Below are positions 9,699-10,982 of a stretch of 36,567 nt of DNA, piece by piece. Below the pieces are notes generated by a model that did no database searches, was not told the DNA's origin, and worked only from the letters and a program-made list of their open reading frames with translations. This stretch comes from a virus (Duplodnaviria > Heunggongvirae > Uroviricota > Caudoviricetes), in IMG/VR virus record IMGVR_UViG_2671180349_000007. One strand, given 5' to 3'. Both the position numbers and the translations under genes were made by a program. How positions within the stretch are numbered: position 1 is the stretch's first letter; each line of letters starts with the position of its first letter.

Positions 9699-9854
9699 GT
9701 GTCATCCAAGGTTAATTATGAGTCGCTGGCATCGGTCATGCCGCGTAATGAACAGGAAACAGATGCTGTAGTGGACCCTGTAATCGCTGAAATGAATGCT
9801 CGCCTGGAGGCTGAATTTGCAGCTGAGAATGAACATACCACCCAGGGCGACTAG
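9699..9854 (+). CDS. small hypothetical protein (about 51 aa)
   Basis: GTG start with GGGAGA RBS; short; overlaps the start of the next gene. Confidence 0.3.
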   Translation: MSSKVNYESLASVMPRNEQETDAVVDPVIAEMNARLEAEFAAENEHTTQGD

Positions 9855-10458
9855 GACTGTTTTTTGTGTCGGTAGCGGTCCGTCACTCACTCGTGAGGAC
9901 TGTGCTGCTATAGAAAAAACTGGCTGTTCAATCATCGCGGTTAACAATTCCTGGCAGATGTTCGATGACATTTATGCTTTATACGCCGGTGATTTGTCAT
10001 GGTGGAAGCAATACGGATCCACCATACCGGGAGGGAGGTTCCGCAAAGTGACAGCCAACCTGGCGGCGGCGAAATCATTTTCGTTGGAGTACAGGCGATA
10101 TTGTGGACCGGCGGAAGGGGTAAATAGCGGCGCGCAGGCTATCAGTCTGGCTGCTGAATCAGGGGCTGAAGTAGTGGTATTAGTCGGCTATGACTGTTCT
10201 CTGCAAAACGGCCTTCATTGGCATGGCGCGCACCCTCAAGCACTACGGAATCCAACGCAGGTGTCTATTTCAAAATGGCAACAGCAGTTCCTGGATACCC
10301 GCAAAAAACACGCAGATTTACATATTTTGAATGCAAGTAGGAGCAGTGCAATTCAATGTTTCCCAAGAATAAATTTAGAGGCAGTGATCGCGTTATTATC
10401 GTCGGCAGTGGCCCAAGCGCCGCAAACTTTGTTGCGCCGCGCGGAGTGCCGATTATAG
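9796..10458 (+). CDS. GT42/MAF_flag10-like transferase paralogue A
   Basis: N-terminal VFCVGSGPS...IIAVNNS, later LVGYDCS and HWHGAH, resembling the GxGPS/catalytic-His layout of CstII-type sialyltransferases and Maf proteins; start uncertain (ATG 9796 or 9829). Confidence 0.55.
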   Translation: MLAWRLNLQLRMNIPPRATRTVFCVGSGPSLTREDCAAIEKTGCSIIAVNNSWQMFDDIYALYAGDLSWWKQYGSTIPGGRFRKVTANLAAAKSFSLEYRRYCGPAEGVNSGAQAISLAAESGAEVVVLVGYDCSLQNGLHWHGAHPQALRNPTQVSISKWQQQFLDTRKKHADLHILNASRSSAIQCFPRINLEAVIALLSSAVAQAPQTLLRRAECRL

Positions 10459-10982
10459 CGGTCAATGGGGCCATCGACTGGCTTAACCGCGCTTCTTATT
10501 TTTTCACACTTGATCCATCGCCAGACAATATGCGGCGCGTTGGTCGTGGCCGCCGTCGCCGTGGTGTTTGTTATTGCATGGCACTACCCGATGTTAAAGA
10601 ACGTGAAGTCAGAGATGGCGTTCTGTGCTTCCGTCGTGTGGCTGAACGCGGCACGGAGCCAAAAAATACGAATTCTCCCGAGTGGTGGGCGTGGCGCTGG
10701 TCCGCACATTTCGGCCTTTGTGAAGATGAGAATGAAATTGCCAGCGGCAATAGTGCATATGGTGCTCTGAACCTGGCTTTCCATATCGGATTCAAACATG
10801 TCGCCCTGGTGGGCGTTGACGCTACGCAAGAACCACGCGTTCACTCCGGCGGCACGCCAAAAAATCTAAGTCACCTGCCTTTGTTATTCCAGTCTGCGCG
10901 TGAACAGATTGACGTTGTTTCATGCGGGAAAATGGGAGGTATTCCGCAGATGACTCTTAAAGAATGGCTGAAGAATACATGA
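10356..10982 (+). CDS. GT42/MAF_flag10-like transferase paralogue B
   Basis: VIIVGSGPS...IIAVNGA...LVGVDAT with a strong TAGGAG RBS; overlaps paralogue A by 103 nt in another frame. Confidence 0.6.

Follow-up and report, generated by a model that had tools for sequence, protein, structure and literature searches.

The pmgO and pmgP genes of a P1-like phage form a genuine, conserved co-directional overlap, in which the frame, the start codon and the Shine-Dalgarno sequence of pmgP are kept in nine divergent loci. In the 36,567-nt stretch of DNA analysed here (the window), open reading frames of 220 and 208 aa share 103 nt (10356-10458) in different frames, as a preliminary description of the same DNA had stated. 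Of these 103 bases only about 40 are obligatory; the remainder is a run-on tail free of constraint. The best explanation of the whole, to which we give a probability of about 80%, is a P1 pmgO-pmgP paralogue pair with an internal pmgP start, an obligatory overlap and a run-on tail.

As shown in Table 1, the gene order is that of phage P1, pmgL-pmgM-pmgN-pmgO-pmgP-ppp-pmgQ, with all genes present. The window shares 98.6% nucleotide identity with P1 over 3401 nt and is a P1-like relative. The two frames were assigned to pmgO and pmgP by mapping to the P1 record, where pmgO (79592-80254) and pmgP (80152-80778) carry the identical 103-nt overlap. The overlap was already known in this sense: it is part of the 2004 reference annotation of P1, from which our reading differs in the likely starts of pmgO (TTG 9817) and ppp (ATG 10979). 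The P1 records are AF234172 and NC_005856, the P7 counterparts are hdmB and hdmC, and pmgN-pmgO-pmgP-ppp-pmgQ form an operon under the control of the C1 repressor. Neither pmgO nor pmgP is needed for plaque formation (PMC10695390); purifying selection on them may therefore be weak in laboratory P1. The 3' end of pmgN overlaps the start of pmgO.

Table 1. Features of the pmgN-pmgQ region, with positions in the window.
Feature	Position	Strand	Remarks
pmgN	9699..9854	+	Small gene of the same operon; mapped to P1 79495-79650; phrog_2350
pmgO open reading frame	9796..10458	+	220 aa as annotated in P1; phrog_4603, 4e-74
Shine-Dalgarno GGAGG for TTG 9817-9819	9806..9810	+	6-nt spacer; read from the sequence
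GSGPS nucleotide-binding-type motif, PmgO	9871..9885	+	From translation; G/P/S columns invariant in family alignments
A6 run in pmgO	10303..10308	+	A6 in 83/83 retrieved P1-like loci
pmgP Shine-Dalgarno AGGAG	10339..10343	+	Within PmgO codons Arg182-Ser183 (AGG AGC)
pmgP open reading frame	10356..10982	+	208 aa, -1 frame relative to pmgO; phrog_2111, 4e-132
pmgP start ATG	10356..10358	+	Formed by PmgO codons Gln187-Cys188 (caA TGt); used by PGAP
Obligatory part of the overlap	10356..10392	+	Conserved PmgO C-terminus; poorly conserved PmgP leader
Formal heptamer T TTC CCA	10359..10365	+	pmgO frame; judged incidental
Formal heptamer A AAT TTA	10371..10377	+	pmgO frame; judged incidental
Lineage-specific run-on	10393..10458	+	21-aa PmgO tail and TAG, read across the PmgP beta1/GSGPS region
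GSGPS motif, PmgP	10404..10418	+	From translation; columns conserved in family alignment
ppp, Ser/Thr phosphatase	10964..11656	+	Metallophos match, 4.9e-16
pmgQ, glycosyltransferase	11653..12354	+	phrog_1962 glycosyltransferase, 1.3e-126

The pmgP frame is closed by a stop at 10338-10340, and the ATG at 10356 is the sole start between that stop and the GSGPS motif; the frame then has no further start before a GTG 30 codons downstream. A mis-called pmgP start was rejected, as no other in-frame start keeps the motif. The ribosome-binding site had been called well supported. The TAGGAG (10338-10343) is indeed present, but its 12-nt distance to the ATG is longer than optimal and makes it somewhat weaker, so pmgP initiation could be weak or dependent on pmgO translation.

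The same layout was found in nine divergent relatives (L085, L108, L110 and L112-L117), which include P1-like phage-plasmids and one lambdoid prophage and are 41-71% identical in PmgO and 56-80% in PmgP. In every relative the -1 frame is the one that encodes pmgP, and the pmgP ATG falls on the same codon of PmgO. Most pmgO homologues returned by profile searches of genome contigs were solo, lacking a pmgP within 3 kb, and these were used as a negative control. The ATG inside the conserved C-F-P codons of PmgO was present in all ten paired loci and in none of the 14 solo loci, and so was a GGAG, which falls in nine of the paired loci at the PmgO Arg-Ser/Arg codons and in L108 instead in Thr-Glu codons, closer to the ATG. 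The paired loci are phylogenetically related, and the 10/10 versus 0/14 contrast represents fewer independent events than loci. The invariant Arg of PmgO is encoded by CGT, CGC or CGA in 11 of the 14 solo genes, versus the rare AGG or CGG followed by AGx in the paired genes. Across the relatives and the window the overlap measures 40, 49, 70, 94, 103 or 109 nt, the shortest being that of L117; the pmgO stop moves, while conserved PmgO sequence runs about 37 nt beyond the pmgP ATG.

The constraint within the 103 nt is split. From 10356 to 10392, codon statistics and AlphaFold confidence show PmgO to be constrained and the PmgP leader to be free: the leader has an amino-acid divergence of 0.54 and a pLDDT of 54, and its synonymous-codon divergence is 0.20, versus 0.585 at synonymous sites elsewhere in PmgP. 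From 10393 to 10458 the same two measures show PmgP to be constrained and the PmgO tail to be free, the tail having an amino-acid divergence of 0.58 and a pLDDT of about 50.

It is unlikely that the whole 103 nt is functional, with the PmgO tail having a role of its own, such as contact with PmgP, or with the distant stop allowing termination-reinitiation coupling. When viral contigs were searched with the PmgO alignment, all matches were near-identical copies of P1, and these served to assess haplotype variation rather than divergence. Among P1-like haplotypes variation is depleted across the overlap (3 variable sites in 103 nt, versus 56 in 560 nt and 67 in 524 nt in the flanks), and 10356-10425 holds no variable site among 56 haplotypes. 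AlphaFold2 also places a helix, at low confidence, at residues 201-210 of the 213-aa form of PmgO. However, relatives have tails of 0 to about 24 aa, and the synonymous sites of PmgP residues 12-35, which lie under it, diverge at 0.58-0.61, as fast as in the rest of the gene. The pmgO stop lies 40-109 nt past the pmgP start, at a distance that varies among the loci, rather than in an ATGA or TGATG arrangement, and this is far for backward reinitiation.

In the layout with an internal start, pmgP would be translated by independent internal initiation rather than by reinitiation. Its GGAG is written into the conserved Arg-Ser/Arg codons of PmgO, and its ATG into the codons before and at the conserved Cys of C-F-P, in the -1 frame. 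PmgO requires about 12 codons (C-F-P...L-E-x-x-I-A) after the pmgP ATG, so an overlap of about 37-40 nt is obligatory, and the first 11-12 residues of PmgP form a disordered, freely varying leader. Past this part, the pmgO frame runs on to the first stop, the position of which is set by synonymous codon choice in PmgP. The sequence GTG-A gives TGA in L117, GTA-G gives TAG in L085 and L110, and P1 has no stop until 10456. The run-on in P1 would add 21 residues to PmgO that are under no selection. Such a layout may ensure that two subunits or steps of a single glycosylation module, which also includes PmgQ, are made together.

The preliminary description had also raised a recoding event. A programmed -1 frameshift at T TTC CCA or A AAT TTA would yield a PmgO-PmgP fusion of about 396 aa as well as both separate proteins. 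We regard this as very improbable, and give the same low standing to a version for P1 itself, in which a low-efficiency -1 site with the pmgP Shine-Dalgarno sequence as a dnaX-like stimulator would give three products (PmgO, PmgP and the fusion); if true, the fusion would mimic the natural two-domain enzymes of other phages (P0051, P0249). The pmgP frame is the -1 frame and is open from 10341, the AGGAG precedes the first heptamer by 15 nt, and in-frame O::P fusions occur naturally in P0051 and P0249. The search for slippery heptamers did find two in 34 codon positions, where simple probability expects about 0.13, but not their conservation among relatives. T TTC CCN is present in five of the ten paired loci and absent from L108 (TGT TAC CCA), L113 and L115 (TGT TTT CCA), and L116 and L117 (TGC TTC CCN). 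A AAT TTA occurs only in the window among nine distinct junction sequences compared, with ATA AAT CTG in L112. T TTC CCN also appears in solo pmgO genes, which have no frame downstream, and there it simply reflects the codons of C-F-P. Heptamers with C as the Y base are poor shifters in E. coli. For the RNA from 10320 to 10470 the minimum free energy is -42 kcal/mol; shuffled versions average -41.5 (z = -0.15), and 90 of the 200 reach a fold as stable as the native one. The junction resembles dnaX-type cassettes in its -1 frame, formal slippery heptamer and upstream Shine-Dalgarno-like element. It differs from them in that the heptamer is not conserved, no downstream stem-loop is found and pmgP carries a Shine-Dalgarno sequence and an ATG of its own, both conserved.

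PmgO and PmgP are true paralogues that diverged anciently, and their likeness is not due to chance. The family profiles align end to end over 165 columns (hhalign probability 97.6%, E 4.6e-12), and both N-termini are genuine, as first proposed. Both begin with a shared block, TVFCVGSGPS...CSIIAVNNS in PmgO and ...VPIIAVNGA in PmgP (BLASTP 14/36 identical, E 0.003). This block had suggested a recent tandem duplication with a decaying first copy, which we consider highly improbable. The paralogues are only 23% identical, with distinct motifs (HWHGxH in PmgO; SPEWW and NLSHLPLLF in PmgP), and each has a large separate family of hundreds to thousands of homologues. As for decay, pmgO is non-essential and frameshifted variants with A7 in place of the A6 run exist, in which PmgO stops at the TAG of TAGGAG; protein P0002 (174 aa, 48 members) is such a product, ending in ...RKKTRRFTYFECK followed by the stop. 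Against decay, the PmgO core carries 47 synonymous versus 9 nonsynonymous variants among P1-like haplotypes and is under purifying selection, and its conservation reaches about 37 nt into the overlap.

The claim that the first copy has an extended C-terminus was borne out. Aligning the paralogues and their homologues, as had been proposed, indicates that the PmgO fold proper ends at about aa 199-200, with the C-terminus of PmgP aligned to a PmgO segment in the hhalign comparison. In line with this, 10 of the 14 solo homologues stop 21-25 codons past the NxSR motif, a point equivalent to about aa 200 of PmgO, and the last 20 or so residues of PmgO are a variable, low-confidence tail. At the other end, pmgO probably starts at TTG 9817 and not at ATG 9796, judging from the upstream sequence and the alignments, and would then encode 213 aa. 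The N-termini of homologues line up with residue 8 of the 220-aa frame. L112 and L113 have a TTG start at the homologous position with ctGGAG before each, and L115 has a TTG at the aligned position but without ctGGAG immediately upstream.

That the overlap is an artefact is hardly credible: no co-directional overlap longer than 60 bp was real among 715 cases (Palleja et al. 2008, PMC2478687) and gene callers are inconsistent at this locus, but the junction shows at least 99% identity in 561 of the 5426 complete E. coli genomes and is the same, base for base, in 80 of 84 retrieved loci, pmgP has no alternative start, and the overlap is kept where PmgO is only 41-71% identical. A sequencing error, with homologues ending before 10356, had been named as what might explain the extension; homologues were instead found to continue past that position, and there is no such error. 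The pair is a same-strand overlap of more than 60 nt validated by comparative genomics, of a kind that the survey did not find, and its apparent length splits into a short obligatory part and a neutral run-on tail. The nearest comparison is holD/rimI, a conserved co-directional overlap of 32-56 bp in Enterobacteria (Palleja et al. 2008, PMC2478687). Both overlaps are on the same strand, conserved across genera and of lineage-specific length (40-109 nt here), whereas pmgO and pmgP are paralogues and functional partners with an overlap above the 60-bp limit of the survey. Because of the overlap, automated pipelines omit pmgO or call it too short in hundreds of P1-like phage-plasmids of E. coli. 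The biological stakes are modest, and the case is tidy and ordinary.

Structure models (AlphaFold2 pLDDT 86 for PmgO and 93 for PmgP) predict a Maf/MptE-like (DUF115), glycosyltransferase-like fold for both proteins. Foldseek matched Maf (5MU5) with a probability of 1.00 and a TMq of 0.56 for PmgO and 0.55 for PmgP, and the MptE HPPK 8SD5 with a probability of 1.00 for PmgP; other top matches were Cst-II and ST6GALNAC2. PmgO and PmgP score 23.4 and 20.9 bits against PF01973, below the gathering cut-off of 34.6, while the fused homologue P0051 reaches 44.6 bits and P0249 and P0247 are also above the cut-off. Like Maf and PF01973 proteins, the two share the fold, the N-terminal GxGPS and an NSG...G(Y/V)D motif; unlike Maf, they are single domains of about 200 aa without flanking domains. 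PGAP names PmgP a 'motility associated factor glycosyltransferase family protein', and no significant NCBIfam family was found for PmgO, PmgP or PmgQ.

RefSeq and PHROG label PmgO 'alpha-2,3-sialyltransferase', a name best regarded as inherited. The GT42 enzyme Cst-II of Campylobacter (2X61_B) matches PmgP weakly (E 0.038, probability 0.89); no Cst-I or Cst-II chain is among the top 50 structure matches listed for PmgO, and there is no Pfam CST-I match. The Kdo-III transferase WaaZ is represented by a faint TIGR04437 match to the GxGPS region. Neither likeness is significant (E 0.04-0.1 in structure; 0.11 and 3e-4 in sequence, far below cut-offs). The donors of Maf/MptE-like glycosyltransferases are CMP-activated ulosonic acids (sialic, pseudaminic or legionaminic acid, or Kdo). 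To our knowledge, E. coli K-12 makes no nonulosonic acid. Maf enzymes are able to use CMP-Kdo in E. coli (bioRxiv 10.1101/2020.06.03.131540), and by analogy the donor in E. coli may be a CMP-ulosonic acid such as CMP-Kdo. A CTP_transf_3 gene is present on the L117 contig.

Natural fusions join the three genes in other genomes. PmgO and PmgP are fused in P0051, known from one assembled contig, and tandem fusions are found in P0249 and P0247. PmgP and PmgQ are fused in P0189, the C-terminal half of which matches PmgQ (E 3e-19), and in P0277. The O::P and P::Q fusions together with the shared synteny point to a single glycosylation module of PmgO, PmgP and PmgQ. This offers a specific hypothesis for three genes labelled 'putative morphogenetic' in P1, a classic model phage that uses the LPS core as its receptor. 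No functional study of pmgO, pmgP or pmgQ emerged from literature searches, and in the P1 virion proteome paper the main text makes no mention of them. In L107, L116 and L117 the three genes stand together without ppp. In the window, ppp probably starts at ATG 10979, to which the PGAP start is equivalent, and the pmgP stop and the ppp start share the ATGA at 10979-10982.

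The pmgO/pmgP pair is an already annotated, ordinary and neatly dissectable gene overlap. Around the overlap, the window was 98.6% identical to bacteriophage P1 over 3.4 kb. The P1 records give the operon order pmgN–pmgO–pmgP–ppp–pmgQ with a C1 operator upstream. The reference P1 records carry this 103-nt overlap in their annotation, so the observation is real, and it has been in public records since 2004. As the preliminary description held, there were two overlapping ORFs in different frames, and both products carried the (V/I)xVGSGPS...IIAVN block; the frame of pmgP was -1 with respect to that of pmgO. 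The TAGGAG named as the pmgP ribosome binding site was present at 10338-10343, but its AGGAG-to-ATG spacing of 12 nt is longish. The TAG of this motif closes the pmgP frame upstream of ATG 10356, which is therefore the only start retaining the GSGPS motif; the next pmgP-frame start was a GTG 30 codons downstream. A sequencing error as the cause of the extension was excluded, because 561 of 5426 complete E. coli genomes carried the junction at 99% identity or more (almost always on plasmids), 80 of 84 fetched loci had exactly the same sequence there, and the A6 run was constant in all 83 loci containing it.

Coordinates of the features in the window and in bacteriophage P1
Feature	Window	Strand	P1	Source
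pmgN	9699-9854			
pmgO	9796-10458	+	79592-80254	reference P1 records
pmgP	10356-10982	+	80152-80778	reference P1 records
tRNA-Met (CAT)	1137-1212	+		

An extended C-terminus had been suggested for the first copy, and three lines of evidence bore this out. In the paralogue alignment, the C-terminal segment of PmgP (13 letters) aligned with a segment of PmgO. In 10 of 14 loci, solo PmgO homologues from bacterial prophages, which lack pmgP, ended 21-25 codons past the NxSR motif, at about residue 200 of the 220-aa PmgO ORF. In the AF2 model of the 213-aa form, confidence fell past about residue 199, and the final blocks had pLDDT values of 52 and 48. The conserved sequence of PmgO therefore reaches about nt 10392, 37 nt beyond the pmgP ATG, and the final ~21 codons are a tail.

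Nine divergent loci with both genes were compared, L085 being a near-duplicate of L110. They were P1-like phage-plasmids of Klebsiella, Salmonella, Pantoea and metagenomes (L085/L110, L108, L112-L115 and L117) and a lambdoid prophage (L116), with 41-71% identity to the window protein for PmgO and 56-80% for PmgP. In every divergent locus, pmgP was in the -1 frame, and its ATG consisted of the last base of the codon preceding a PmgO Cys and the TG of the Cys codon (caATGt, aaATGt, cgATGc and acATGc). The pmgO stop shifted among loci, giving overlaps of 40, 49, 70 (four loci), 94, 103 and 109 nt. It was made by synonymous codon choice in PmgP, as in GTG-A to TGA (L117) and GTA-G to TAG (L085/L110).

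The pmgP ATG was found in 10 of 10 paired loci versus 0 of 14 solo pmgO genes. In 9 of 10 paired loci, the invariant Arg of PmgO was encoded by AGG or CGG with an AGx codon next, so that GGAG lay 12-13 nt ahead of the ATG; L108, the tenth, had its GGAG in ACG GAG, 5 nt ahead of the ATG. All 14 solo pmgO genes lacked GGAG at this site, the majority using CGT, CGC or CGA. Because ATG and GGAG occurred in paired loci and neither in solo genes, the comparison shows that the pmgP initiation signals are selected features inside the PmgO coding sequence, only where pmgP follows.

Constraint was split within the overlap. Across nine loci, the PmgP leader (aa 1-11) had an amino-acid divergence of 0.54 versus 0.31 in the remainder of PmgP. 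Identical residues seldom used different codons there (0.20 versus 0.585), so it is the pmgO frame that constrains the leader. The leader was disordered in the model (pLDDT 54), and beta1 began at residue 12. Under the PmgO tail, residues 12-35 of PmgP had a synonymous divergence of 0.58-0.61, the level of the remaining PmgP; the tail therefore imposes no constraint. Its own amino-acid divergence was 0.58. Among 56 P1-like haplotypes, the overlap had 3 variable sites in 103 nt, with 0 in 10356-10425, and the flanks had 56 in 560 nt and 67 in 524 nt (p ~0.003 for depletion, a rough Poisson estimate). The 3' run-on of pmgO is neutral and the obligatory overlap about 40 nt; the run-on alone takes the P1 overlap past 60 nt. 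In a survey of co-directional overlaps, none of 715 cases longer than 60 bp was real, and the longest genuine case was holD/rimI, at 32-56 bp with genus-specific length (PMC2478687). The pmgO/pmgP overlap is of that kind.

The recent tandem duplication that had been proposed stood as to paralogy and failed as to age. With hhalign, the PmgO and PmgP family alignments matched end to end over 165 columns (probability 97.6%, E 4.6e-12). The identity was 23%, and each family had its own invariant motifs (HWHGxH in PmgO; SPEWW and NLSHLPLLF in PmgP), so the duplication was not recent. AlphaFold models were confident (pLDDT 86 for PmgO and 93 for PmgP), and in Foldseek both proteins matched the Maf glycosyltransferase 5MU5 with a probability of 1.0 each. 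PmgP also matched the archaeal MptE kinase 8SD5, with a weaker match to Cst-II, and PmgO matched ST6GALNAC2. For Pfam PF01973, the window proteins were sub-threshold and fused homologues above threshold; an exhaustive search with a fused homologue as query gave 2133 relatives at E ≤0.001. PmgO and PmgP are genuine, ancient paralogues of a Maf/MptE-like fold.

Recoding was not supported and is improbable in P1. The P1 pmgO frame holds two formal X XXY YYZ heptamers, T TTC CCA (10359-65) and A AAT TTA (10371-77), and a -1 slip at either would join PmgO to the entire PmgP. These heptamers were unconserved (relatives had TGT TTT CCA, TGT TAC CCA, TGC TTC CCN and ATA AAT CTG), solo genes had T TTC CCN too, where it arises incidentally from the C-F-P motif, and RNA 10320-10470 folded no better than shuffles (z = -0.15).

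Natural fusions linked the module. P0051, from a 62-kb phage contig, was an in-frame PmgO::PmgP fusion of 376 aa with a PmgQ homologue after it, and P0249 and P0247 were further tandem DUF115 fusions. P0189 (C-terminal half matching PmgQ, E 3e-19) and P0277 were PmgP::PmgQ fusions of 401 and 396 aa. The three genes occurred together without ppp in L107, L116 and L117. Because of these O::P and P::Q fusions and the co-occurrence, we infer that PmgO, PmgP and PmgQ work together in a single glycosylation pathway or complex. The donors of Maf-type enzymes are CMP-ulosonic acids, and in E. coli these enzymes can accept CMP-Kdo (bioRxiv 10.1101/2020.06.03.131540). A CTP_transf_3 cytidylyltransferase gene (CMP-Kdo/CMP-NeuAc synthetase family) lay 3 kb downstream of the L117 module (7654-8418; Pantoea plasmid CP034366), a hint that a CMP-activated sugar serves the module. 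P0197 and P0186 were further fusions: a 556-aa protein in which Ig-like Big_1/Big_13 domains follow a PmgO-like domain, an architecture pointing to a form associated with the surface or the virion, and a 484-aa protein joining a PmgO-like domain to an unassigned C-terminal domain of 300 aa. Both pmgO and pmgP are dispensable for P1 plaque formation (PMC10695390). pmgN is listed as essential by CRISPRi screen and non-essential by knockout (PMC10695390 table); the former result may come from polarity or off-target action within the operon.

The annotated pmgO start, ATG 9796, was without a Shine-Dalgarno sequence. TTG 9817 had GGAGG 6 nt upstream and was homologous to the TTG starts called in L112 and L113, there preceded by ctGGAG, so PmgO is likely 213 aa from TTG 9817; the pmgN/pmgO overlap would then be 38 nt instead of 59. 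For ppp, the start given in the P1 record, ATG 10964 (overlapping pmgP by 19 nt), is probably incorrect; ATG 10979, the start used by PGAP and in relatives, gives an ATGA stop/start overlap at the pmgP stop (10980-10982). In the P0002 cluster (48 database sequences), A7 replaced the A6 of pmgO (10303-10308), which shifts the frame so that PmgO ends at the TAG of the pmgP TAGGAG and lacks its conserved C-terminal third; the variant is either a pseudogene allele or a sequencing error in the homopolymer. In the RefSeq E. coli plasmids NZ_PV023060.1 and NZ_AP018798.1 (L119/L120) and NZ_CP142951.1 (L118), PGAP retained pmgP and, apparently because of the long overlap, omitted pmgO (~500-nt unannotated gap) or called it as 136 aa, N-terminally truncated. 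The same under-annotation of PmgO probably affects many of the ~560 E. coli P1-like plasmids. Metagenome gene callers in some cases truncated pmgP instead. The typo 'norphogenetic' in the P1 GenBank notes for pmgM and pmgP is now the product name 'norphogenetic protein' of many RefSeq/nr proteins in both families. The tRNA-Met (CAT) gene is presumably among the tRNA genes known from P1.
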